Of a stretch of DNA of 64,000 bases, positions 9,917-43,088 are shown in pieces. Source of the DNA: Bacilli bacterium (lineage in GTDB: Bacteria; Bacillota_I; Bacilli_A; RF39; UBA660); the NCBI GenBank assembly GCA_900772095.1, contig CAAGQJ010000031.1, positions 14,479-78,478 on the forward strand. The letters are read 5' to 3'. Each line of letters opens with the position of its first letter. Within the stretch, counting starts at the first letter, position 1. A model generated the notes under the pieces. It made no database searches and had not been told where the DNA came from. It saw nothing but the letters and a program-made list of their open reading frames with translations. Position numbers and translations under genes: made by a program.

Positions 9917-10510
9917 ATGAAATTTAGTGAAAAACTTAACGATTTATTTAATCGTCTTACTACAAGTTATGATGGTCCTTCTAAGGAAGCTGAAGAATTT
10001 GAGAGAATGGTTAGTGAAAAAGTAAAAGATGAGAGAAAAGATATAATTGATGAGGAGTATTTAAATAAATTAGTCAATTATATTGCAACTAATGAGCCTA
10101 ATTATCTTATAGTTAAAGAGCAAGAAGAAGTATCTGTACCAATTCCTTCAAATAATGATTATGCTAGTTCAAAAGATTATGAACGTGCTAAGAAAATAAG
10201 AAAGTTTATTGTGTCTGTAGCGTCTTTTATTGCAATTTCTTATGCTATTTTTATGATTTCTTCTAAAAGGAATACTAAAGAAGATGGTAGTGAGAAACCA
10301 AGTATTAATTCTTATGAGACTGTAAGTGATGAGGAAACAAAGGAAAAGCGTTCAATAAGTGGTGAACAATTATATAAGATATTTATACAATATGCTAAAG
10401 ATAATGATTTAGCAATAACTCGTGAAAATTACGTAGATTTTTTAGAAGCATTTGAAGATTATTTTGTAAATGGTGGTACTTATCCATCTAGAGGAGATAC
10501 AAGACCATGA
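9917..10510 (+). CDS. bitopic membrane protein, copy 1 of the duplicated module
   Basis: Charged N-terminus, a single TM (FIVSVASFIAISYAIFMISS), and a C-terminal segment EQLYKIFIQYAKDNDLAITRENYVDFLEAFEDYF that is shared with 10733-11821. Confidence 0.5.
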   Translation: MKFSEKLNDLFNRLTTSYDGPSKEAEEFERMVSEKVKDERKDIIDEEYLNKLVNYIATNEPNYLIVKEQEEVSVPIPSNNDYASSKDYERAKKIRKFIVSVASFIAISYAIFMISSKRNTKEDGSEKPSINSYETVSDEETKEKRSISGEQLYKIFIQYAKDNDLAITRENYVDFLEAFEDYFVNGGTYPSRGDTRP

Positions 10511-10740
10511 GTAAAGATATTATTGTATTAGATGGAAGAGATTTTTTAATAGTAGAAAGAGTAACTTATCAAGATGAGAACTATTTATATGTAATAGCAA
10601 CAGATGGTTCTAATGATATTACAGTATTACATGAATATGAGAAAATGAATAAGAAGTATGTTAAGAGTATTACAGATAAAGATATAATAGATAAAGTATT
10701 TCTTTTAGTAGCACAAAAATATGAGGTAAATAATGCATAA
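10507..10740 (+). CDS. DUF1292-like small protein, copy 1
   Basis: 77 aa. The ATGA overlap with the upstream gene indicates coupling. It shares 52/77 residues with 11824-12057. The motif DGRDFLIVERVTYQDENYLYVIA resembles DUF1292/YrzB. Confidence 0.5.
   Translation: MSKDIIVLDGRDFLIVERVTYQDENYLYVIATDGSNDITVLHEYEKMNKKYVKSITDKDIIDKVFLLVAQKYEVNNA
10561..10599 (+). repeat. 39-nt block identical to 11878-11916
   Basis: GTAACTTATCAAGATGAGAACTATTTATATGTAATAGCA occurs in both small genes. Confidence 0.9.
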
Positions 10741-11821
10741 TATAGATGATTATATTAATAAGGAAATAGATGATAATTTTCCTTTGGATGATGATATAGA
10801 TAAGTTTATAGAAATTATTGATAAACAAAGGAAAGTATTGGGAAAATGTATAGATGCACCTACTATGCCTAAATTTAGAACTTTTACTAATTCTGAAGAT
10901 GAAAGACCTGTTCAAAGTAAAAGGGAAGCAGAATTAGAGGAAATGCTTCGTGAAAGTATTATAAATGACCCTGATTATTTTAAGAAACTGAGTGTTGAAA
11001 TTGCTAGAAGAAAAGAAGAGGAAAAGAGAAAAAAGGAAGAACGAATAGACGAGGAAAAAAGAAGATTTAGTACTAATGAAGAGTTAATTGATGATGATGA
11101 TGATGATGATCCTTTTAAAGATATGTTTCATTTTTTTGAGAGTGATAAGCCTAAGGAAGAAAAAAGAGAATATGAAACAAGACTTTATAGTGGCGATGAT
11201 GTGTTTAGTCATATTTTTTCTGATATAGATAATGCTGGGAAGTCTACTGCTTTAAGTAAAGTTGATAATTCTTCACGTGAAGAGAAGAAAGAAAGTAGGA
11301 AGATAAGGGATGCATTTGATAGTTATGTACATACTTCTAATAGAAAGGAAGAATTACGAAGGGCTAAAATTGCTAGATGTACAGATGCTATTTTTGGTAA
11401 ATTCCAAGATGTGATAGACTTTTTAAGTGATAAAATTTTTGAACCAATTTCAGATTTTTTTAGAGATGCTGAACCTAAAGAAGTGATTTTTGCGACTGCC
11501 GGTATAATAATAATTATTGGTACCTGTGTTGTTACTACGCTTGATAAGTCTTTACAGGAAAATCAAGGAAGAATTGCGCCAAGTCCTACACCAAGTCCTA
11601 CGCCAAAACATACTCATACAATTACTATGAATAATTTAAATACTCCAACAACATTTGTTCAAAGGGAAGATGGTAGTGTAACTAATACATTTGATGAAGA
11701 AGTATATCAAAAGTTTGAAGATTATGCTAGGGAAAATAATCTTATAATGAATAGTGAAAACTTTGAGAAATTTTGTGATATGTTTTATAGTGATACTAAT
11801 AATCGTAGTTCTAGGAGGTAA
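10733..11821 (+). CDS. bitopic membrane protein, copy 2 of the duplicated module (expanded)
   Basis: Long acidic/basic N-terminus (poly-D, KEE repeats), TM VIFATAGIIIIIGTCVVTTL, Pro/Thr linker SPTPSPTPKH, and C-terminal EEVYQKFEDYARENNLIMNSENFEKFCDMFYSD. Confidence 0.5.
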   Translation: MHNIDDYINKEIDDNFPLDDDIDKFIEIIDKQRKVLGKCIDAPTMPKFRTFTNSEDERPVQSKREAELEEMLRESIINDPDYFKKLSVEIARRKEEEKRKKEERIDEEKRRFSTNEELIDDDDDDDPFKDMFHFFESDKPKEEKREYETRLYSGDDVFSHIFSDIDNAGKSTALSKVDNSSREEKKESRKIRDAFDSYVHTSNRKEELRRAKIARCTDAIFGKFQDVIDFLSDKIFEPISDFFRDAEPKEVIFATAGIIIIIGTCVVTTLDKSLQENQGRIAPSPTPSPTPKHTHTITMNNLNTPTTFVQREDGSVTNTFDEEVYQKFEDYARENNLIMNSENFEKFCDMFYSDTNNRSSRR

Positions 11822-11823
11822 TT

Positions 11824-12057
11824 ATGGATAAGGATATGATTAAATTAGATAATAGGGACTTTTTGGTTATTGATAAAGTAACTTATCAAGATGAGAACTA
11901 TTTATATGTAATAGCAGTAGATGGTAAAAATGATATTACAATATTACATGAATATGAAAAAATGAATAAAAAGTATGTTGAAAGTATTACTGATAGAGAT
12001 TTAATAGATAAAATATTCTATATAGTAGCACATAATTCTAGTAGAGGTGATATTTAA
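11824..12057 (+). CDS. DUF1292-like small protein, copy 2
   Basis: 77 aa, a paralogue of 10507-10740. AGGAGG RBS lies inside the upstream stop region. Confidence 0.5.
   Translation: MDKDMIKLDNRDFLVIDKVTYQDENYLYVIAVDGKNDITILHEYEKMNKKYVESITDRDLIDKIFYIVAHNSSRGDI
11878..11916 (+). repeat. 39-nt block identical to 10561-10599
   Basis: Same string as 10561-10599, read directly from the sequence. Confidence 0.9.
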
Positions 12058-15494: not shown

Positions 15495-15540
15495 TTTTAT
15501 TCACCTAGTAATTAATATGAAAAAGAAGGTAAAAATATTA

Positions 15541-15617
15541 TAATAAGTTGAAAATAATCTAATTTTATGGTATATTTGTTATGATAGAAAGTGATAGTAG
15601 GGAGGAGAAAATGAAAG
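15541..15617 (+). repeat. promoter/5'UTR block A, near-identical to 17691-17767
   Basis: 5 mismatches and no gaps over 77 nt by hand alignment. It contains TTGAAA (15548-15553), a 17-nt spacer, TGgTATATT (-10 at 15571-15576) and an AGGGAGG RBS. Confidence 0.85.
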
Positions 15618-16036
15618 GTAAAAAGTTAAGAGTAGTTTTAATATTTTTGATAATAGTTCTTGTATTAATTGTATTTTTTACTACTAAAATATTGGTAAAT
15701 AAGCATATAAATTCTAATTATTATAAAAAATTATTAGAAAAAGAAACTTGGGTAATTGTAAAAACTGAATATTTATATGATAATTATTTGACTACTTATG
15801 AAGACACGGGGTTATCATTTAGTTTTAATAATGGTAATTTAAGAATATGTGGTGTTAATGGATGTAATGATACGTTGTATACTTTGAAAAATAATAAATT
15901 AAAAATAGATAAATATGGTGATGAGAGTTTTTATGGGTTATATGAAGTTGATTATCAAAACGAATTATTAGGTCTTAAAATGTTTTATGAAGATAATGGT
16001 TATGTTAAATACTATTTAGATATTGTTAAGGGGTAG
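15611..16036 (+). CDS. signal-anchored small protein, cassette A
   Basis: ATG 15611 after AGGGAGG. MKGKKLRVVLIFLIIVLVLIVFF, then a Tyr/Asn-rich ectodomain. Confidence 0.5.
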   Translation: MKGKKLRVVLIFLIIVLVLIVFFTTKILVNKHINSNYYKKLLEKETWVIVKTEYLYDNYLTTYEDTGLSFSFNNGNLRICGVNGCNDTLYTLKNNKLKIDKYGDESFYGLYEVDYQNELLGLKMFYEDNGYVKYYLDIVKG

Positions 16037-16043
16037 GAGATTT

Positions 16044-17609
16044 ATGAGAAATAAAAAAGGTTTTACTCTAGTAGAAATAATAATTGTAGTGGCAATAATT
16101 GGAATTCTAGCAGGTATTATTATTTCTAGTGTAACTAGATATATAAAAAAAGGAAAAAATGATTATAATTATAAATTAGAAACAGAATTAGTATCAATAG
16201 CAAAGGGTTATTATTCTGAACATAAAAAGGAGTTACCAGATGGTAGACCTGTTGCTTTTAAAGTACTTTGGGCAAGTTTTTTATCAAGTAATAATTATTT
16301 AAGTAGTACTTTTATTGATGCTGATGGAAATAAGTGTTTAAATAGTTATGTTATTGTAGAAAAAGGTAAAGATGATTATAGTTATACTTCGTGTATAGTG
16401 TGTGATAATGGTTATAAAACAAATAATGATGCTTGTACATTTGATAATAATTATATTGGGGATATAACTCCGCCACAATGTAATAAAGTAAGTGCTACTA
16501 ATATAAGTAATGGTTATGTAAATGGGAAAATATATTTAGAAATAGATGCAGTTGATAGTGGTTCTGGTATTTCTAAGTATAAGATTAATGATATAGAAGT
16601 ACCTTATAAAAGTAATGAAAATCCATTTAAATATACATTTTTAACTTCTTTAGAGGGTAAAATTAATATAAAAGTTAAAGTTTATGATAAAGCCGGGAAT
16701 GAAGCAACTTGTGATGATTTTTCTTTGATAGTAGATAGGACTAAACCAGTAATTAAAAAGTTTACTATTGTTTCTAATAATTATGAGATAAATACTAAGG
16801 AAGCAACTGCTACAGTTTTGGGAACTGATAGTTCTAGTGGTGTAGATAAAGTGTGTATAACTACTAGTGATGATAGTAGTACATGTTCTTGGACTGATAC
16901 GACTTCAAATGAATACATTGATAAAAGCTTTAAAACTAAATCTGATACAGGAAGTGGAGAAACAGAAAGTTTTTATGCGTTTATAAAAGACAAGGCTGGA
17001 AATGTGTCAGATAGTAAGAAAGTTGATTATAAATTATATACTTATTGTACTTACAATATTAGAAAAGAAGGTGAATGGGGTTCTTGTTCTAAGGATTGTG
17101 GAGGTGGTGTTCAAAAAAGAACAATATATTATAATGATAAATATGTACCTTCTCATAGTTGTCCAGCTGGTGAAGAAACTCAGTCTTGTAATACTAATTC
17201 TTGTGGCTCTTATTGTTATAAAGTTACGGCGTCAAGTGGTTTAAATTGTCGTAGTGGTCCAGGTACTAGTTATGGTAAAGTAACAAGTTTTAATGCTTGG
17301 GAATATTTTATGTTTAGTCCTAGAAGTGATGGTTGGTATTACAATAGTACTTATGATTGCTATTCTAGTTCTGATTATTTAGAATATTATTCTTCATCAT
17401 GTCCCGGTTCTAGTTCTGGAGGAGGTAGTTCTGGTGGCGCTTCTTGTACATGTCCTTCTGGTTATATTAAGATGGGTACTACATGTTATAGAAAATGTTT
17501 GGTTAATAGTATAAAACCAGGGGAAAAATGTAGTAATTGTCCAGGAGGTCAAGCTGGTTTTGCTGGTAATACTGGATACTGCATGAATAGTTATAAATCT
17601 TGTTCTTAG
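16044..17609 (+). CDS. large type IV prepilin-type protein (class III signal) with Ig-like, TSP1-like, SH3b-like and Cys-rich modules
   Basis: MRNKKG|FTLVEIIIVVAIIGILAG is a prepilin cleavage/methylation motif. DKAGN-type Ig-like repeats are present. See the sub-features. Confidence 0.75.
   Translation: MRNKKGFTLVEIIIVVAIIGILAGIIISSVTRYIKKGKNDYNYKLETELVSIAKGYYSEHKKELPDGRPVAFKVLWASFLSSNNYLSSTFIDADGNKCLNSYVIVEKGKDDYSYTSCIVCDNGYKTNNDACTFDNNYIGDITPPQCNKVSATNISNGYVNGKIYLEIDAVDSGSGISKYKINDIEVPYKSNENPFKYTFLTSLEGKINIKVKVYDKAGNEATCDDFSLIVDRTKPVIKKFTIVSNNYEINTKEATATVLGTDSSSGVDKVCITTSDDSSTCSWTDTTSNEYIDKSFKTKSDTGSGETESFYAFIKDKAGNVSDSKKVDYKLYTYCTYNIRKEGEWGSCSKDCGGGVQKRTIYYNDKYVPSHSCPAGEETQSCNTNSCGSYCYKVTASSGLNCRSGPGTSYGKVTSFNAWEYFMFSPRSDGWYYNSTYDCYSSSDYLEYYSSSCPGSSSGGGSSGGASCTCPSGYIKMGTTCYRKCLVNSIKPGEKCSNCPGGQAGFAGNTGYCMNSYKSCS
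17043..17207 (+). other. thrombospondin type-1 repeat-like module
   Basis: YCTYNIRKEGEWGSCSKDCGGGVQKRTIYYNDKYVPSHSCPAGEETQSCNTNSCG fits W-x-x-C-S-x-x-C-G-x-G-x-x-x-R...C...C-N-x-x-x-C. Confidence 0.5.
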
Positions 17610-17633
17610 TAGATTTAAATAAAGATAAAGTAA

Positions 17634-17673
17634 AATATGATACTGGTTATTTATAAGAGGTATCATATTTTTT
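17634..17673 (+). terminator. hairpin terminator after cassette A
   Basis: AATATGATAC / GTATCATATT stem with a 16-nt loop, then a T run. Confidence 0.5.
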
Positions 17674-17690
17674 GATATATAAAAATATGA

Positions 17691-17767
17691 TAATAAGTTG
17701 AAAATAATCTAACTTTATGGTATATTTATTATGATAGAAAGTAATAATAGGGAGGAAAAAATGAAAG
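17691..17767 (+). repeat. promoter/5'UTR block B, near-identical to 15541-15617
   Basis: Same TTGAAA-17-TGgTATATT promoter and AGGGAGG RBS. 5 of 77 nt differ. Confidence 0.85.
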
Positions 17768-18246
17768 AGAAAACGTTAAAGATAATTTTAATATTTTTAG
17801 TGATTGTTTTAGTTATTGTTTCTACATTTACAATATTAAAATTCGCTAAAAAAAGTGGTATAAGAAAAGATATAGTAAATAATGCTCCTGTAGATATGGA
17901 TAAAGAATTAAATAGAACTAGAAATAATAGTGGTGAAATAACAAAGCCACATACTTTAGATAATTTAACTGTAACAGGAATAAATATTTTATGTGAGAAA
18001 GATTTATTTTGTGTAGTAAAGGGAATATTAACTAATAATAGTGATAAGGAAGTAAAAGATAAATATATAAAATATACTTTTTATTATAATGATAAAGAAA
18101 AAATAGAAGCATTATATTATGAAAGTATAAAACCAAATGAAACAGTAGATATAGAAATTCAATCAAATGATTTTGATATAGTTAATGCTACTTCATATAA
18201 AATTGAAACTATTGAGAAGGAAGAATACGAAAAATTAATTGGTTGA
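17761..18246 (+). CDS. signal-anchored small protein, cassette B
   Basis: ATG 17761. MKEKTLKIILIFLVIVLVIV. The ectodomain is unrelated to its cassette A counterpart. Confidence 0.5.
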   Translation: MKEKTLKIILIFLVIVLVIVSTFTILKFAKKSGIRKDIVNNAPVDMDKELNRTRNNSGEITKPHTLDNLTVTGINILCEKDLFCVVKGILTNNSDKEVKDKYIKYTFYYNDKEKIEALYYESIKPNETVDIEIQSNDFDIVNATSYKIETIEKEEYEKLIG

Positions 18247-18308
18247 AATGACAAAATAAACATGATATTATTAATTGTAGGATAGTATCATACTTTTGGA
18301 GGATTTAT

Positions 18309-19868
18309 ATGAGAAATAAAAAAGGTTTTACTCTAGTAGAAATAATAGTAGTAATAGCAATAATAGGGGTTCTAGCAGGTATTATTGTTCCTAGTGTAAT
18401 GAGATATGTAAGAAGAGGTAAAAATGATTATAATGCTAATTTGGAAACAGAGTTAGTATCGGTAGCAAAGAGTTATTATTCTGAACATAAAGAAGAGTTG
18501 CCAAGAGGCTATATAAATGAAAATACTAATTTACCTATAACTACAAAGCTTCTTGGAGTATCGTATTTAGCAAATCAAAATTATTTACTTGGTGATTTTA
18601 AAGATGCTGATGGTAATAATTGTAAAATAAATAGTTATGTTGTTGTAGAAAATGATGGTGGTAACTATAAATATACTCCATGTGTAGTGTGTGATAGCGG
18701 ATATAGTTCTGATGAAAAGTCATGTAACTATAAAGCTCCGAGTTCATCTAATGAGGGTGAAAATACTCCTCCTTCTTGTAGTTTAACGTTGAAAAGTGGG
18801 GTTATAAATAAATGGACTAATGGTGATGTAGTTTTAAAGTTATCTGCTAGTGATAATAAAGGATTATCATATTATTATTTAAATAATGATGCAGATGGAA
18901 TTACTATAAAAGACAATCCTTTATCGTTTGAGCATGAAATAAATTTTGATAAAGATACCAATATTCCTAGTTATTATGTAAAAATTGAGGATGTTTCTAT
19001 AAATTATAATCGTTGTTATTTTAATGAAAAAATACTAATAGATAAGACAGCACCAACTGTTGATGATATTAACTTTGATGGTGATGGTAATGTTCTTACA
19101 ATTAAGGCGAGTGATAAAGGTGGCAGTGGTTTAGATAGAGTATGTATTAGTGCTAATGAATTTAAGTGTGATTGGGATGATAGTTTTTCTTTTGATATTA
19201 GCTCTGGAACATATACTAAATCTGGTTATAATCCACCTAACAATTATACTGGTATAATATATGTTTTTGTAAAAGATAAGGCAGGTAATGTATCTGTTAG
19301 TACAAAATACACTATAGTAAAATTGCCAACAAAGGTAGTAATTTATAATGATAGTAAAACTTATTTTTATTCTAGTGGAGCACCAACAACAGTGTGTTTA
19401 CAAGATGCAATTGGGTTAAATCATTTTACTATAGAAAGGGAATTTTATACTGAAAAGCAAATAAATGTAAGTTATTATTATGATGAAGCAAAAAAGGCTT
19501 ATTGTTTTAATGATAAGGTTACTTTGAGCCAACCAAGGTATACTTATGTTTATTATAAAGCTAAATATAATGATGATTATACAAAGTCGGATGGTTCTAT
19601 AGTTTCTTTAAAAGCAAGTTTTACAAATAAAACAAAAAAAACTTATTATGTTGGATGTGTATATTTTGAACAAATATCTGATTATACTCCAAAACCAACT
19701 TGGCAAGATAAATATTGTGATAGTTCAAAAAGATTATATGCATATAATAAGCTAGATTATGTTGATTTTGAAGGACAATATTTATATAGTTATAGTGATT
19801 CTGATTATGTTTGGGATATAACTAATGGTGCATATCGTTTTGGAGATCAGTTTAGATTTTATAATTAA
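18309..19868 (+). CDS. large type IV prepilin-type protein (class III signal), paralogue of 16044-17609 with a different C-terminal half
   Basis: MRNKKG|FTLVEIIVVIAIIGVLAG. The first ~130 aa are similar to cassette A. Ig-like repeats are present (ASDKGGSGLDRVCIS, VFVKDKAGNVSVS). The C-terminal domain is Tyr-rich and unknown. Confidence 0.75.
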   Translation: MRNKKGFTLVEIIVVIAIIGVLAGIIVPSVMRYVRRGKNDYNANLETELVSVAKSYYSEHKEELPRGYINENTNLPITTKLLGVSYLANQNYLLGDFKDADGNNCKINSYVVVENDGGNYKYTPCVVCDSGYSSDEKSCNYKAPSSSNEGENTPPSCSLTLKSGVINKWTNGDVVLKLSASDNKGLSYYYLNNDADGITIKDNPLSFEHEINFDKDTNIPSYYVKIEDVSINYNRCYFNEKILIDKTAPTVDDINFDGDGNVLTIKASDKGGSGLDRVCISANEFKCDWDDSFSFDISSGTYTKSGYNPPNNYTGIIYVFVKDKAGNVSVSTKYTIVKLPTKVVIYNDSKTYFYSSGAPTTVCLQDAIGLNHFTIEREFYTEKQINVSYYYDEAKKAYCFNDKVTLSQPRYTYVYYKAKYNDDYTKSDGSIVSLKASFTNKTKKTYYVGCVYFEQISDYTPKPTWQDKYCDSSKRLYAYNKLDYVDFEGQYLYSYSDSDYVWDITNGAYRFGDQFRFYN

Positions 19869-19945: not shown

Positions 19946-19950
19946 TTAAT

Positions 19951-20176
19951 TAATGACTTTGAAGAGGAATAAATTATAATAAAATTATAGAGAGTTAGTG
20001 GTTGGTGTAAACTAATATAGAGTTATAATTTTTGACACCTTGGAGTTGTTTATCTGAAATTAGTAGGATAAACCGGCTAAACCGTTATCAAATAAGTGAT
20101 TATAGTAATATAATAAATTGGGTGGTACCGCGGATTAACAGTTATTCGTCCCTTTGGGATATAACTGTTTTTTTAT
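19951..20176 (+). promoter_or_regulatory. T-box riboswitch leader, Asp (GAC) specifier
   Basis: Stem I elements (GAAGAGG..AGAGAG..TTGGAG), specifier loop ..TTTTTGACACC with GAC at 20034-20036 followed by A, T-box sequence AAATTGGGTGGTACCGCGG at 20115-20133, and a terminator hairpin. Confidence 0.85.
20137..20176 (+). terminator. T-box attenuator terminator
   Basis: AACAGTTAT (20137-20145) pairs with ATAACTGTT (20161-20169), followed by T7. Confidence 0.75.
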
Positions 20177-38375: not shown

Positions 38376-38567
38376 ATGAAAAGTAATAGAGGTCAAGCTT
38401 TAGTAGAATATGTTCTAATTATAGCATTAGTTGCAGTGGTTGCTATTACTGCGGTTACACTTCTTGGAGGAAGATTAAAAGATAAAATTACTGAGGCATC
38501 ATGTAATATTGTGGGAGAAGAATATGTAAAAGGTGCTAAGGCTGGTGAGGGATATTGCAAAGAATAA
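38376..38567 (+). CDS. flp: Flp-family type IVb prepilin
   Basis: MKSNRG|QALVEYVLIIALVAVVAI matches the G-x4-E-Y Flp motif. 63 aa. Confidence 0.75.
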   Translation: MKSNRGQALVEYVLIIALVAVVAITAVTLLGGRLKDKITEASCNIVGEEYVKGAKAGEGYCKE

Positions 38568-38902
38568 ATAAAAAGGGTCAGGCTTTAGTAGAATTTGTAC
38601 TTATAATTCCTATTTTAATTATGGTATTATGTGCAATTATTGATTTTTCTTTTATTTTCTATAATAAAAATCATTTAGAGGGTGTTTTAAATGATTCAGT
38701 TACTTATGTTTTAAATGGTAAGACAAGTGAGGAAATTAGAAAATTAATAAATGATGATGATGTTAATTTATCAGTAGAATTTGATGGTGATATTGTTAAA
38801 GTAAAGTTAACAAAGAGTATAAAGTTAATTACACCGGTTTCTAGATTATTTATTAATAGTCCATATACTATAGAAACAGAAAGAGCAGTATTTTATGAAT
38901 AA
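38555..38902 (+). CDS. TadE-like pseudopilin
   Basis: TTG 38555. NKKG|QALVEFVLIIPILIMVLCAIIDF (TadE N-terminal pattern). Confidence 0.6.
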   Translation: MQRINKKGQALVEFVLIIPILIMVLCAIIDFSFIFYNKNHLEGVLNDSVTYVLNGKTSEEIRKLINDDDVNLSVEFDGDIVKVKLTKSIKLITPVSRLFINSPYTIETERAVFYE

Positions 38903-39257
38903 TAAAGGTCAAAGTTTATTTTTATTTGTTTTGTTTTTACCTATTATTGTTTTCACACTTATACTCATATTTGATTCGGCCTATATAACAATAAATAATA
39001 ATAAATTAAATAATATTGCTCGTGATGCAGTTAAATATTTAGTAGAAAATAAAAAGAGTAAAGAAGAAGTAGAAAAAATAATATTACTTAACGATAGTGA
39101 TATTGATATAATAGAAATAACAGATTCTAGTGTTCATTTAAAGCATAATATTAAACCTATATTTGGTAAATATATGGGTTATAAAAAGTATGAGCTTGAA
39201 ATTAATTTAGAGGGATACATAGAAAACGGTAAATTAATTACAAAAGAAAAGGGGTAG
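38895..39257 (+). CDS. TadE/TadF-like pseudopilin
   Basis: NNKG|QSLFLFVLFLPIIVFTLILIFDSAY. Same size class, but it lacks the +5 Glu. Confidence 0.5.
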   Translation: MNNKGQSLFLFVLFLPIIVFTLILIFDSAYITINNNKLNNIARDAVKYLVENKKSKEEVEKIILLNDSDIDIIEITDSSVHLKHNIKPIFGKYMGYKKYELEINLEGYIENGKLITKEKG

Positions 39258-39260
39258 AAT

Positions 39261-40031
39261 ATGAAGAAAGGAAAGGGGAAAATAGTTACTGTAACTTCCA
39301 CTAAGGGTGGAGTTGGTAAGACTATTACAACACTTAATTTAGCAGGATGCTACCACAAATTAGGTCTTAAAACTTTAGTTATAGATTTAGACCTTTTTGG
39401 AGGTGCGATTGGGACTTATCTTAATAGTACTAATGATAAAACAATTTTCAATTTGGTACTTGATTTGGCTTACAATAGATATGAATCTCTTGATAATTAT
39501 TTATATCAATACAACTCTAATATCTATATAATATCTGCGCCTAAAGATCCTAGGAGTGCTAGTAAAATAGATGCTAAATATATACCTATTATTTTAAATA
39601 ACGCTGTGTACAGATTTGATGTGGTTTTAATTGACACAACACATCTTTTAGATGAAGTAAATGTTACTGCACTTGATAATTCTGATTCTATTTTATATAT
39701 TTTAACTAATGATATGTTTGATTTAAAGAATACAAAATCATTTATATCAATTATGAAAGATGTTGGTTTTAAGAATTATTATACACTTTTGAATGAATCT
39801 ATTAATCCCGGTAGAAGTTATTTTTCTATGTATGATATTAGAAGTATTATTAAAAATAATATAGATTTTACTGTTTCTAAGAGTATGTATATTAAAAATA
39901 TAGATAAATATATTATGGATGGAGAAATACTTATTTTAAATAATAAGCTTTCTTTTAAAGATAAAAAAGATTTAAATAAGTATATTGAAATATCTAAAAA
40001 ATTAATTGAAGAAAAGGGGGATAAGAAATGA
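39261..40031 (+). CDS. tadZ: TadZ/CpaE-like ParA/MinD-family ATPase
   Basis: Deviant Walker A VTSTKGGVGKTITTLNLAG. No N-terminal receiver-like domain. Confidence 0.7.
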   Translation: MKKGKGKIVTVTSTKGGVGKTITTLNLAGCYHKLGLKTLVIDLDLFGGAIGTYLNSTNDKTIFNLVLDLAYNRYESLDNYLYQYNSNIYIISAPKDPRSASKIDAKYIPIILNNAVYRFDVVLIDTTHLLDEVNVTALDNSDSILYILTNDMFDLKNTKSFISIMKDVGFKNYYTLLNESINPGRSYFSMYDIRSIIKNNIDFTVSKSMYIKNIDKYIMDGEILILNNKLSFKDKKDLNKYIEISKKLIEEKGDKK

Positions 40032-41365
40032 GAAAAACACTAGCAGAAGCCTTTTCTTTTGATGATAGAAAGTTTAAGAGTGTAAATACTAATGAGAATT
40101 ATGGGATTTTTAAAGATAAGCAATTGCTTGATACTTTAAGAAATAATATAATAGAAAATTTAATAGATAATAATATTCCTACTGATAAGTATTTAAAAGA
40201 GTATATTAATGAAGAGATAGATAAAACTCTTACTGGGTACGATTTATCTAATTTAGAGCGTAATCATATTTTTAATTTAATAGATAATGAAATAAATGGT
40301 TATGGTCCAATTACTGAACTTTTGGAGGATAGAAATATTACTGAAATAATGGTAAATGGTCCGGATGATATATATGTAGAAATAGATGGCCAAGTAGTTA
40401 AAGATACTTCGGTATCATTTATTAATAATGAACATATTATAAGAACAATACAAAGAATGATTCAACCACTTGGAAGAACAATAGATATATCTACTCCTAT
40501 GGTTGATTCTAGATTAAAAGATGGTTCGAGAATAAATGCAATTATTCCACCACTTTCATTAAAAGGTCCAGTTTTAACTATTCGTAAGTTTAAAGATAAT
40601 TTAAATACTATAGATGATTTGATTAGAAATGGTACTCTTACTCCATATATGGCAAGATTTTTGGAGGCATGTGTAAAAGCAAAATTAAATATTTTAATAT
40701 GTGGGGGAACTGGTTCTGGTAAAACAACAGTTTTAAATGTTTTGTCTTCATTCATTGATAGTGATGAAAGAATTATAACAATTGAAGATGCTGCGGAGCT
40801 TCATTTGAGACAAAATCATGTAATTAGTCTAGAAACTAGAAATATGAACTATGAAAAAGAAGGGGAAATAACTATTCGTGATTTAGTAAGAAATTCTCTT
40901 CGTATGAGACCAGACCGTATTATAGTTGGAGAAGTCCGTGGTAAAGAGGCATTTGATATGCTTCAAGCAATGAATACCGGACATGATGGCTCTTTATCAA
41001 CGCTTCATGCAAATGGAACATTAGATGCTTTAAATAGGCTGGAAACAATGGTATTAATGAGTGGTATTGAAATACCGATAAGTGCTATTAGAGAGTATAT
41101 TGAAAAAGCTATTAATATAGTTATATATATTGAAAGATTATCTGATGGAAAAAGAAAGATAACTTCTATTTGTGAAGTTTCGGGTTTAAAAGATGGAGAA
41201 ATTAAATTAAGAGAAATCTTTGCATTTAAACAAAAGGGTTTAACTTCAAATGGTGAAGTAGATGGTGCTTTTGTGTTATATAAATATATACCTAAAGTAT
41301 ATGCAAAAATTAAAAGCAAAGGTATTACAAGTATAGATGATATATTTGAAAATTTAAGAAAGTAA
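40028..41365 (+). CDS. tadA: TadA/CpaF secretion ATPase
   Basis: Walker [18 protein letters not shown], Walker B/Asp box [12 protein letters not shown], and His box [13 protein letters not shown]. Confidence 0.9.
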
Positions 41366-41383
41366 AAATAAGAAGGTGATGAT

Positions 41384-42379
41384 ATGAATTATTTAAGTGT
41401 TACTATTCAAATAATAATGATAATTATTTTAGTTGTTATCACCTTCTTGTTATATCGTTTTTCTCTTGCAAGTAGTAAGGAAAAAAGAATTAATCGTTTT
41501 GCTATAGAGGCTTTAAGTGAAAAGCAAGTATCTATAATTGATAGATTAGAACAATTAATGGATAAAATAATAAGAGCAATGTCTAAGTATTTAGAGGAAC
41601 ATAAAATATTTAAACGCTATCATAAAAAATTTGAAAAATACTTAGGGTTAACTGATAAAGATAGAACTAGTTATGATTATATATCAATTAAAATATTAAT
41701 AAGCATTTTTACTAGTGTATTAACTATTGTATCTGATGCACTTAGGTTTAAAAGTGTTTCATTTTTTCAAGTTTTTGGTTCTTTTTTACTAGGATTTTTT
41801 GCTTTAGATGTTATTCTTATAGTTAGACAAAGAAAATTAAAGAAGGATACTAGTAATGATTTATTAAAAGCAGTTATTATAATGAATAATGCTTTTAAAT
41901 CTGGAAGAAGTATTATGCAAGCAATTGAACTTGTTTCTACTGAATTAGATGGTGCAATTGCAAATGAATTTAGAAAAATATATATAGATTTAAGCTATGG
42001 TTTAGACTTAGAAGTAGTATTTGAACGTTTTTCTAAGAGATTACCATACCAAGAAGTAGAATATATGGCTTCATCATTAATAATATTAAATAAAACAGGT
42101 GGTAATGTAGTAAAAGTATTTTCTTCAATTGAAAGAAGTCTTATTGAAAGAAAACGATTAAATGATGAATTAAATTCTGCTCTTGCTATGTCAAATTTTG
42201 TATTTAAAGTATTAGCAATTATGCCATTTTTTATATTTATAGTTATTTATTTATTTAATAATAGTTATTTTAAGCCATTATTTAGTAATGTTTATGGGAA
42301 AATAATAATAATAGTTATATTATTACTTTATATATTATATATCTTTATAGTTAAGAAGATAACAAAATTGAAAGAGTGA
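41384..42379 (+). CDS. tadB: TadB-like platform protein (T2SS F-domain)
   Basis: Polytopic protein in the expected size and position after tadA, with a T2SF-like helical cytoplasmic domain. Confidence 0.7.
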   Translation: MNYLSVTIQIIMIIILVVITFLLYRFSLASSKEKRINRFAIEALSEKQVSIIDRLEQLMDKIIRAMSKYLEEHKIFKRYHKKFEKYLGLTDKDRTSYDYISIKILISIFTSVLTIVSDALRFKSVSFFQVFGSFLLGFFALDVILIVRQRKLKKDTSNDLLKAVIIMNNAFKSGRSIMQAIELVSTELDGAIANEFRKIYIDLSYGLDLEVVFERFSKRLPYQEVEYMASSLIILNKTGGNVVKVFSSIERSLIERKRLNDELNSALAMSNFVFKVLAIMPFFIFIVIYLFNNSYFKPLFSNVYGKIIIIVILLLYILYIFIVKKITKLKE

Positions 42380-42383
42380 TACT

Positions 42384-43088
42384 ATGGAAAAGAAGAAATT
42401 TGATTTGAGTTCTAAAATTTATAGTACAAATAGCATTAAAAGAGTAGAAAAAAAGATTAAATTACTTGGAGTAACTAATACTTATAGTGCTGGTAATTTA
42501 CTAAATATTAGATTACTTACTTCAATTATTATGTTTTTTGTGTTATTATATTTTTTGAACCTTGGCTATATAGTCGCACCAATAGTAACTTTTATCTATT
42601 ATGTTAGTTTTTTCCCACTATTAATAGGCACTAAAATCAAGAAAAGGGAAAAACGTTTGGAAAAAGATTCTTTATATTTCTTTGAAATACTTGCTTTATC
42701 ACTTGAAGCAGGTAGGAGTATAAAGACTGCTATTGAAGTTACTACTGCCAATGTAAATTCAGAACTGTCTTTAGAGTTTGAAAAGCTTTTAAAAGATATG
42801 ATGTTTGGCAAAAGTTTAGATGAAGCTTTAGATGATTTAAATAGTAGAATACCATCTGATGCTATTAATAATATTATTCTAAATATAAGACAATCTAATA
42901 TATTTGGTAATAATATTTTAGAAACAGTATATAGTGAAGTTGAGTATATAAGAGAAAAGAGAATACTAGATGCTAAAGCACAAATAAGTAAGATGCCAGT
43001 TAAAATAAGTGTAGTATCAGTAATATTTTTTATACCATTATTACTATTATTATTACTTGGTCCAATTATTATAGAATTATTAGGTTAG
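42384..43088 (+). CDS. tadC: TadC-like platform protein (T2SS F-domain)
   Basis: Second F-domain membrane protein directly after tadB. Confidence 0.65.
   Translation: MEKKKFDLSSKIYSTNSIKRVEKKIKLLGVTNTYSAGNLLNIRLLTSIIMFFVLLYFLNLGYIVAPIVTFIYYVSFFPLLIGTKIKKREKRLEKDSLYFFEILALSLEAGRSIKTAIEVTTANVNSELSLEFEKLLKDMMFGKSLDEALDDLNSRIPSDAINNIILNIRQSNIFGNNILETVYSEVEYIREKRILDAKAQISKMPVKISVVSVIFFIPLLLLLLLGPIIIELLG

Follow-up and report, generated by a model that had tools for sequence, protein, structure and literature searches.

Background

Modular pilins are type IV pilins in which a pilin module carries non-pilus domains, and the class was founded on PilB (with a vWA domain) and PilC (with a lectin domain) of Streptococcus sanguinis (PMC8179133). 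More than 1,200 modular pilins in 264 architectures are found in InterPro (Raynaud et al. 2021, PMC8179133). They are a proposed route to the binding specificity of simple type IV filaments; very few have been studied, and none of these is from the abundant, as yet uncultured gut Firmicutes with small genomes. The subject of this analysis is a pair of tandem gene cassettes in a 64-kb window, by which is meant the whole stretch of DNA that was analysed (64,000 nucleotides of contig CAAGQJ010000031.1, assembly GCA_900772095.1, from a Bacilli bacterium of the RF39 lineage, UBA660); all positions given below are those of the window. Cassette A (15540-17609) and cassette B (17690-19868) each consist of a gene for a small protein (smallA, smallB) followed by a gene for a large protein that starts as a type IV prepilin does (largeA, largeB).

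Among the type IVb minor pilins, CofB is a protein of about 520 residues that initiates assembly, and CofB and TcpB are paired with CofJ and TcpF, respectively. In the pilE/pilS system of Neisseria, the conserved 5' pilin sequence is the substrate of recombination and the variable 3' part encodes the exposed surface. The domain layout of CofB is described in PMC8179133. The pilin island of Pseudomonas aeruginosa contains pilA allele groups together with their cognate tfpO, tfpW, tfpX, tfpY or tfpZ genes (Qaderi et al. 2025, PMC11841053). TfpX, TfpY and TfpZ, which belong to Pseudomonadota, are proteins of 235-245 amino acids (aa) with three N-terminal transmembrane helices and a periplasmic mixed beta-sheet domain, and are encoded downstream of the major pilin (PMC11841053).

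The two cassettes are best explained, with a fairly high probability, as paralogous operons in tandem, each with a gene for a modular type IV pilin; the distal parts of these pilins recombine and would be displayed on a pilus as adhesins. New here are the cassettes with portable 5' blocks, a family of single-pass upstream partner proteins, the tips formed by thrombospondin type-1 (TSP1) and SH3b-like modules or by an orphan module, and the evidence of recombination and fast evolution.

Domain architecture of the large proteins

Both large proteins, largeA (521 aa, 16044-17609, forward strand) and largeB (519 aa, 18309-19868, forward strand), start with MRNKKG|FTLVEII, a class III signal with the predicted cleavage after Gly, Phe at position 1 and Glu at position 5 of the mature protein. 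The N_methyl family (PF07963) was matched with 34.3 and 34.9 bits (cut-off 21.2, E 1e-8) and TIGR02532 with 29.9 and 30.4 bits (cut-off 16.3), so that the class III prepilin signal proposed in the first-pass annotation, which was made from the DNA letters and open reading frames (ORFs), is borne out by two profiles in each protein. The signal is of the T4a/Com-like and not of the Flp-like type. In an alignment of ten large pilins, G6, F7 and E11 of the precursor are invariant, and Cys residues in the globular pilin head are kept across the aligned relatives. The pilin module of largeA (aa 1-140, 16044-16463, forward strand) comprises a 6-aa leader, the G|FTLVE motif, a helix at residues 9-59 and a small head that contains Cys. 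It is supported by the profiles, by phmmer matches to solved type IV pilins, which span aa 1-61, and by AlphaFold2 (AF2) models, in which the helix is followed by short strands at residues 72-125; the predicted local distance difference test score (pLDDT) of the head is just 35-80. One of the small pilins of the same genome, a 148-aa protein encoded on contig C36, is a paralogue of this module in the large proteins (33-50% identity).

The pilin module is followed in both AF2 models by two consecutive, confidently predicted beta-sandwich domains, which answers the suggestion that the structures of both large proteins be predicted. In largeA, the tandem Ig/FN3/PKD-like domains occupy aa 139-234 and 231-333 (16458-17042, forward strand) with a pLDDT of 73-94, the confident span of the model being residues ~145-335. 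When the single domains of largeA were compared with known structures by VIA-align, Z scores of 8-9.6 and root-mean-square deviations of 2.0-2.9 A to FN3, PKD and Ig-like folds were obtained; Big_13 was matched with 27.7 bits against a cut-off of 27, and a match of the region to OmpL47-barrel was below threshold. The tandem Ig-like domains of largeB lie at aa ~150-340 (18756-19328, forward strand; pLDDT 78-95). Foldseek searches returned the tandem Ig-like adhesin stalks of SiiE, FdeC and GhpA, and also the Ig-Ig-TSP1 ectodomain of UNC5; the fold-search lists were filled by matches to Ig-like domains and speak to neither the tips nor the pilin head. Ig-like repeats had been anticipated with a D-K-A-G-N turn, and this turn closes each of the two domains of largeA and occurs once in largeB.

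The extent of homology between the two large proteins is greater than had been assumed. By BLASTP, residues 1-326 of largeA align with residues 1-333 of largeB at 40% identity (E 4e-59), an alignment that spans both Ig-like domains. The earlier limit of the conserved head at ~130 aa is thereby replaced by two boundaries, one at about residue 120, where low synonymous divergence ends, and one at about residue 330, where protein homology ends; just the last ~190 residues are unrelated, and not the C-terminal halves.

The distal part of largeA begins with a TSP1 repeat at aa 343-387 (17070-17204, forward strand; WGSCSKDCGGGVQKR...), which was identified with Pfam families PF19030 (26.4 bits, cut-off 23.8) and PF00090 (24.5 bits, cut-off 21.6). 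It has the CSxxCGxGxxxR core and flanking Cys residues, contains one Trp only, and was modelled with a pLDDT of 63-74 over aa 340-380; TSP1 families match seven of the ten aligned relatives. Next is a segment at aa 398-432 (17235-17339, forward strand) with a sub-threshold match to SH3_3 (20 bits, E 8e-4, cut-off 27), which is called SH3b-like here since it fails the SH3b threshold. A phmmer search of this segment against solved SH3b chains gave weak matches (E 0.0065-0.015), and model confidence is low there. The protein ends in a Gly/Ser linker and a Cys-rich tail, delimited by alignment at aa 456-521 (17409-17606, forward strand). Three types of Cys-rich tail are found on otherwise similar bodies among the ten aligned proteins; the tail type of largeA is shared with no relative found, and its identity to all other tails is 19-35%.

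The corresponding part of largeB (aa 335-519, 19311-19865, forward strand) is an orphan module that is rich in Tyr and contains four Cys. No Pfam match was obtained for it, and it was not found in three congeners. When a profile of the module was searched against 1.84e9 cluster representatives, it matched its own cluster and one 679-aa pilin, encoded at the syntenic locus of a relative, and nothing else. The AF2 pLDDT is below 50 over residues 437-519 of largeB and over much of residues 384-521 of largeA.

By these sequence and model data, largeA and largeB belong to the known class of modular type IV pilins: TSP_1, TSP1_ADAMTS and Big_13 are above cut-off in largeA, and both proteins have two Ig/FN3-like domains by predicted structure in addition to the pilin module. 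When largeA was searched against protein databases, 94 matches were obtained, mostly proteins of 460-900 aa with N_methyl, about one third of which also have TSP1. Prepilin-type ORFs of more than 400 aa were found in 13 of 40 related genomes.

Evidence for module exchange

The DNA of the two cassettes is alike in three blocks. Block 1, located by DNA self-comparison, contains in cassette A (15540-15659, forward strand) the promoter, the 5' untranslated region (UTR) with an AGGGAGG ribosome-binding site (RBS) and the first ~16 codons of smallA, which belong to the signal anchor; its copy in cassette B (17690-17809, forward strand) likewise holds the promoter, 5'UTR, RBS and start of smallB. At a fixed offset of 2150, 15-20 of every 20 nucleotides (nt) are identical inside the block, compared with 8-10 outside. 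The left edge is abrupt at 15540, 8 nt 5' of the -35 hexamer, and the right side fades past ~15659; as repeat family D2, the block has 86% identity over 134 nt. The count of five differing positions among the 77 nt of 15541-15617 and 17691-17767 in the first-pass annotation was exact on recount, and the non-coding DNA of promoter and 5'UTR is 93-97% identical between A and B. The second block is the 5' end of the pilin genes (16035-16238 and 18300-18503; 86% identity, 204 nt) and the third (16339-16416 and 18628-18705) has 78% identity.

Over aa 1-120 of largeA and largeB, the identity of third codon positions is 0.63-0.87; over aa 121-226 it is 0.33-0.43, and the random expectation is 0.44. 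The first 30 codons include 24 conserved residues, of which 22 are encoded by the same codon. This pattern cannot be due to purifying selection on the alpha1 helix, because synonymous and non-coding identity is high as well; it points to recent homogenisation of the 5' parts.

Further comparisons were made with three loci of relatives. L012 is from a related species and corresponds by synteny to the DUF3792-aspS locus; L002 is a gltX-small-pilin-rplM locus of a congener; and L035 is a metagenomic contig with the same locus as L002. Nucleotide identity of L002 and L035 is 97-100% over a stretch that includes gltX, the spacer and the small gene and reaches ~100 nt into the pilin gene; beyond this point it falls to 84-94% and then to ~70-80%. 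The identity of the two pilin proteins by segment, from alpha1N to the tail, is 92, 73, 68, 55, 45, 18 and 29%. A sharp identity breakpoint of the kind that had been proposed as a check is thus located ~100 nt into the pilin gene. At L012, where two small-plus-large cassettes and a third large pilin give three pilin genes (compared with two cassettes here), a tract of 200 nt in the pilin head (L012:6092-6291) is 100% identical between cassettes 1 and 2, and its flanks are 76-86% identical; the regions for the small-gene ectodomains are ~76% and the 3' ends 75-79% identical.

The nearest neighbours of successive segments, determined from the ten-protein alignment, are incongruent along the protein. 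The alpha1N segment of largeA is closest to largeB (78%), its head and first Ig-like domain are closest to P0014 (58% and 42%), and its second Ig-like domain, TSP1 repeat and SH3b-like segment are closest to the L012 pilins (66%, 57% and 74%), while the C-terminus of largeB is closest to the third L012 pilin, L012_3 (56-61%). That pilin gene (L012:10024-12060) encodes an unusually long, very Lys-rich leader of 31 residues before G|FTLIE, within A-rich DNA, and one extra Ig-like domain; no small gene lies 5' of it, and a 230-aa protein that belongs to no family is encoded 3' of it.

The locus is syntenic among relatives, and cassette number and order vary; fragments of a congener around the DUF3792-aspS locus suggest that the order of cassettes is different there. 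All 23 contigs that were found for the species of the window have the identical two-cassette layout, from which it follows that exchange is not frequent within the species.

The rate of change was estimated from a single within-species pair, the window and contig L011. For obg, thyX and aspS, nucleotide difference is 0-0.7% and the ratio of nonsynonymous to synonymous rates (dN/dS) is 0.07-0.08. Residues 141-521 of largeA differ by 1.0-1.4%, and the dN/dS of 1.78 for residues 141-334 comes from seven nonsynonymous and one synonymous changes only. Residues 141-519 of largeB differ by 4.1-5.5% with a dN/dS of 1.2-1.3, and the ratio of nonsynonymous to synonymous changes in this part is 46:9, compared with 5:16 in the housekeeping genes (Fisher p = 1.7e-6). 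In this one pair, the exposed modules of largeB therefore diverge ~10-fold faster than the flanks.

Taken together, the sequence comparisons support a swapping of the outer parts of the large pilins by recombination while the inner parts are kept. Of the cassette shuffling put forward in the first-pass annotation, the exchange of 3' modules is supported, and more clearly in relatives than within the window; the analogy with polymorphic toxins, discussed below, fails. Neither of the two patterns that had been named there as contrary to shuffling (relatives without sharp breakpoints; small genes that are not conserved partners) was found: the breakpoint is sharp, and the smallA-family gene is a conserved upstream neighbour.

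Small upstream proteins

The small genes encode proteins of 141 aa (smallA, 15611-16036, forward strand) and 161 aa (smallB, 17761-18246, forward strand), both signal-anchored. By family alignment, smallA consists of an N-terminal signal anchor and an ectodomain of ~110 aa with a conserved C-x4-C motif and a YVKYYL..G end; the same three features are found in all six sequences of its family. The anchors of smallA and smallB are identical at 14 of 24 residues, and an alignment of the two families with hhalign covers just 22 columns of the anchor. The statement that the small proteins are alike in their N-terminal part only, with unrelated ectodomains, thus holds by pairwise comparison and by hhalign. 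In 6/6 loci, a gene of the smallA family is located 7-13 nt upstream of a large pilin of the TSP1 type, which makes genes of this family conserved neighbours of such pilins. Relatives of smallB were found in its own species and as one congener sequence (53-56% identity, the value varying with the alignment) that adjoins DUF3792 at a contig end. Matches of smallA and smallB across 150 genomes of the family were marginal (E 5e-5 to 1e-3; one smallB match E 1e-7) and were not taken as homologues.

Leads to the fold of the ectodomains are weak. For smallA they are sub-threshold matches to DUF3642 (E 0.0017) and, in two of six members, to DUF5640, together with lipocalin-like lipoprotein neighbours in the Atlas (score 0.84); for smallB they are the beta-sandwich families FxLYD and DUF2393. 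Identities of small proteins and pilin segments are correlated across 15 non-independent pairs, the anchor with alpha1N (rho 0.70) and with the head (rho 0.84). An assignment of the interacting domain from this correlation was rejected, because 15 non-independent pairs are too few and physical linkage explains the rho values of the anchor equally well. That the small upstream proteins are accessory factors of their pilins is possible, judged from gene order and sequence, at somewhat less than even probability. A role as partner of a specific tip is weakened because the small ectodomain is kept at 96% identity despite replacement of the tip and because several large pilins have no small gene.

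Promoters and transcription signals

All four genes were confirmed, and they lie on one strand at the coordinates given above. A promoter scan placed an extended -10 promoter-like site upstream of each small gene, TTGAAA-17-TG-TATATT in cassette A (15548-15576, forward strand) and TTGAAA-17-TGnTATATT in cassette B (17698-17726, forward strand), and the element of this type reported earlier was thereby located at both positions. The hexamers are invariant 5' of 5/5 aligned small genes from three genomes; the reading as a promoter, a function predicted from the DNA, is stronger for this invariance across five cassettes than for the consensus match by itself.

Between the cassettes is a terminator-like hairpin followed by U6 (17632-17671, forward strand; dG -13.1 kcal/mol, z -2.6; inverted repeat I11), which is absent from the consensus terminator scan because its stem is AT-rich. 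Given this hairpin, the two cassettes are probably separate transcription units. The genes smallB and largeB are 62 nt apart, and their spacer holds a weak hairpin, ATGATA..TATCAT (18262-18291, forward strand; dG ~ -10 kcal/mol, z -1.7), of the same type as the terminator 3' of largeA, and a promoter-like site from the scan (18243-18271) overlaps it; this element may attenuate transcription of largeB or give it a second promoter. The gap between smallA and largeA is only 7 nt and has no counterpart of the hairpin spacer of B.

Searches for inverted repeats flanking the promoters, as in phase variation, gave none that was convincing, just AT-rich low-complexity pairs; the gene starts are free of long homopolymer tracts, and no Rfam elements were found inside the cassettes. 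A mobile-element origin was rejected, since the cassettes match their flanks in GC content, lie among housekeeping genes and are at a syntenic position in relatives.

Pilus machinery and genome context

The genome is represented by a 93% complete assembly of 1.6 Mb with 31.8% GC; relatives in the family have genomes of 0.8-1.4 Mb. PilD, PilB and PilC, for which a genome search had been recommended, were all found, on contigs other than that of the cassettes. The PilB/GspE-type ATPase is encoded on contig C12 (T2SSE, E 6e-123; best NCBIfam matches GspE and PilB), and the PilC platform protein and PilD (A24_N and Peptidase_A24) on contig C19, PilD being the single A24 peptidase of the genome. 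Four small pilins are encoded elsewhere in the genome. All these type IV pilus (T4P) genes are dispersed over other contigs, with housekeeping genes as their neighbours, and the lack of pilus machinery beside the cassettes is therefore normal for this genome. The earlier statement that the window has no PilB or PilC holds for the T4a type, of which PilB, PilC and PilD are elsewhere; a Tad/Flp locus inside the window does have a T2SSE-family ATPase and two T2SSF-family proteins. When the four cassette proteins were searched against the 93%-complete assembly by tblastn, no further, orphan or silent C-terminal cassettes were found.

The PilB-type ATPase (L016:6309-8240) is a protein of 643 aa, of which ~240 residues beyond T2SSE belong to no family, and its gene lies alone between those for PriA and for a 656-aa protein with no Pfam or NCBIfam match. 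Also on C19 (L015:227-1810), 5' of rplM-rpsI, is a gene for a 527-aa protein with SpaA/prealbumin-like domains, which are adhesin domains of the sortase-pilus type; a congener has a small-plus-large pilin cassette at the position of this gene.

Within the window, the cassettes are flanked upstream by obg, thyX, tmk and a divergent DUF3792 gene, all in all a neighbourhood of the housekeeping type, and downstream by aspS. A full-length T-box leader (Rfam RF00230, 125 bits, 19950-20156) lies directly 3' of cassette B and 5' of aspS. The Tad/Flp (type IVc) locus at 38376-43088 looks complete and is followed by yebC. It contains flp, for a 63-aa Flp-type pilin (38376-38567), a tadE-like gene (38555-38902), a gene for a 120-aa protein with no assigned family, a gene for a ParA/TadZ-like ATPase (39261-40031), tadA for the T2SSE-family ATPase (40028-41365), and tadB (41384-42379), which is separate from tadC (42384-43088), both for T2SSF-family proteins. 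A Tad-type cluster of TANB77 with fused TadB/C and small pilin-like proteins is described in PMC11680825; its genes are others, and it was not used for classification here. Another tandem duplication of two genes is located at 9917-12057, where genes for a 197-aa and a 77-aa protein are followed by genes for a 362-aa and a 77-aa protein. The two 77-aa proteins are clearly paralogous (~84% nucleotide identity over ~200 nt in the comparison of strains), the 197-aa and 362-aa proteins each have a hydrophobic segment and have similar C-termini, and the unit is without Pfam match.

Assembly model and alternative explanations

By the sequence comparisons above, the tandem copies exchange 5' sequence by gene conversion, and their 3' parts, which encode the adhesin modules, are replaced by recombination in which one crossover site lies in the conserved 5' part of the pilin gene. 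In the proposed mechanism of assembly, the prepilins would be processed by the single PilD-type peptidase, after which the pilin module could enter a type IV filament. This filament would also contain the four small pilins and would be assembled by the PilB-type ATPase and the PilC platform from the other contigs. The large pilins would be minor subunits of low abundance, probably near the tip, and the filament would present their distal modules, which would attach it to surfaces of the host or of microbes. As membrane-anchored extracytoplasmic factors co-expressed with the pilin, the small proteins may assist in handling the bulky subunit or in priming it for assembly. From the sequences, we infer a function of the large pilins as adhesins displayed on a pilus.

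A number of observations weigh against this explanation. The distal ~190 residues of both models are of low confidence and the SH3b call is below threshold. The E5 residue is kept in both large pilins, and by itself it does not place them at the extreme tip. PilM and PilN (Pfam) and a PilT-like ATPase were not found in the 93%-complete assembly, so that the filament may be minimal, non-retractile, or the proteins may stay anchored in the membrane. The dN/dS values come from a single pair and would fit positive selection, relaxed constraint and imported DNA alike. Between L002 and L035, the small ectodomain stays 96% identical while the distal modules of the adjoining pilin are replaced; large pilins without a small neighbour are known (L012_3, G002:C1, G002:C5, G003:C2 and G003:C6); and the link between small protein and pilin is purely one of synteny.

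Retention of the large proteins in the membrane is itself an alternative, in which the class III signal would serve only for export and anchoring, as it does in archaeal substrate-binding proteins with class III signals and in pseudopili like those of the type II secretion system (T2SS), and the products would be surface adhesins with no long pilus. The missing PilM, PilN and PilT, the scattered pilus genes, the lack of a dedicated operon around the cassettes and the poor packing of subunits so large in the body of a fibre would all agree with it. It is nevertheless considered unlikely, since neither of the two proteins and none of the ten aligned relatives has lost Gly-1, F1 or E5, the globular head with its conserved Cys is kept, and PilB, PilC, PilD and small pilins are all encoded. 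The alpha1N segment, moreover, is the most conserved one and is homogenised between the paralogues, as expected if it packs with other subunits. An origin as ordinary duplicated minor pilins, with purifying selection behind the likeness of the 5' parts and old divergence behind the difference of the 3' parts, has to be weighed against the same data. A conserved N-terminus and a variable C-terminus are the rule for all type IV pilins (PMC11841053), and the uniform layout in the 23 contigs of the species would also be accounted for. What makes this account quite improbable is that third-position identity is high in the 5' 360 nt only, with the same codon at 22 of 24 residues within the first 30, and that even the non-coding promoter and 5'UTR are nearly identical; to this are added the abrupt breakpoint between the near-identical L002 and L035, the 200-nt tract of full identity that joins the tandem copies of L012 between diverged flanks, and the incongruent nearest neighbours.

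The plan of a conserved 5' part, a variable 3' part and recombination at the junction also recalls contact-dependent inhibition (CDI), Rhs and polymorphic toxin loci, and the cassettes could accordingly be read as devices of contact-dependent competition, the small protein being the cognate immunity protein. Each large gene is indeed accompanied by a small one, the orphan module of largeB matches no known function, and the Tai4 immunity family matches two members of the smallA family (E 0.021), although these matches are far below the cut-off. Yet searches of both C-termini with Pfam and NCBIfam gave no domain of a toxin, nuclease, deaminase or peptidase, and the modules that are recognised (TSP1, Ig-like, SH3b-like) are of the adhesion type. 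The small gene is upstream, its product is exported and anchored, and it is kept at 96% identity next to a C-terminus that is replaced and retains 18-29%; orphan or silent C-terminal cassettes were absent by tblastn. The toxin explanation is accordingly regarded as very improbable.

The explanation as recombining operons for pilus-displayed modular pilins can be extended to a wider proposal, which is rather doubtful at present. The DUF3792-aspS and gltX-rplM loci would be hot spots of pilus-adhesin diversification, in which the 5' blocks act as portable handles that let the ectodomains of small proteins and pilins be swapped independently. The small proteins would be new, cassette-specific assembly or priming factors of monoderms, similar to TfpY, and pili tipped with TSP1 and SH3b-like modules would attach a reduced-genome bacterium to host mucosa or to bacterial cell walls under diversifying selection.

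The mosaic series of pilins maps module boundaries without experiments, and the fast change of exposed modules within a species is as expected under pressure from the host, phages or competitors. The locus also offers a candidate for a new accessory family tied to one pilin type, and a eukaryote-like TSP1 repeat that is predicted to be on a bacterial filament, with an orphan module as the alternative tip. If the tips do bind host or bacterial surfaces, they would be handles for understanding, and possibly isolating, these organisms.

Comparison with known systems

The large proteins share with the type IVb minor pilins CofB and TcpB a length of ~520 residues, the order of a pilin part followed by beta-rich domains, to which CofB adds a terminal beta-sandwich binding domain, and the pairing with a small exported protein. 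There is no sequence relationship with CofB, which trimerises and initiates assembly within a complete T4b operon, and CofJ and TcpF are soluble and secreted, in contrast to the signal-anchored small proteins found here. With regard to Neisseria pilE/pilS, no promoterless silent copies were found here (tblastn, 93%-complete genome), and each of the two copies is a complete gene that has a promoter; exchange is found from strain to strain and from one tandem paralogue to another, and is not a programmed switching within the cell.

The TSP1 repeat of largeA has the same CSxxCGxGxxxR core and flanking Cys residues as the thrombospondin type-1 repeat (TSR) family and is above the gathering thresholds. 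It differs from the canonical repeat in that it is single, has one Trp instead of the WxxW ladder and occurs in the context of a bacterial pilin; a full-text search of the literature gave no paper that describes a TSR-bearing pilin, and proteins of this kind recur in metagenomes.

As in the Pseudomonas pilin island, a pilin gene and a second gene, here the candidate accessory gene, are inherited together at a strain-variable locus, the membrane part of the protein from the second gene is alike and its extracytoplasmic domain divergent, and a terminator-like hairpin is present. The proteins here differ from TfpX/Y/Z in having one anchor helix, a length of 141-161 aa and a position upstream of a large, presumably minor pilin, and have no sequence similarity to them. 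They fall outside the TfpX/Y/Z (FimB-like) family, and by analogy resemble its members in organisation and presumed function only, not by homology.

The closest likeness is to PilB and PilC of S. sanguinis (PMC8179133; PMC9934059), which have the same plan of a small class III pilin module with grafted adhesion modules, also in a monoderm host, and are likewise presumed to be binding subunits of low abundance. The modules of the present proteins, which are predicted to be displayed on pili, are two Ig/FN3-like domains followed by TSP1, SH3b-like and Cys-rich segments or by an orphan module. Their genes are located outside a pilus operon, in tandem cassettes that each have their own promoter and a gene for a small membrane protein upstream, and there is evidence here for the exchange of 3' modules between strains and between paralogues.

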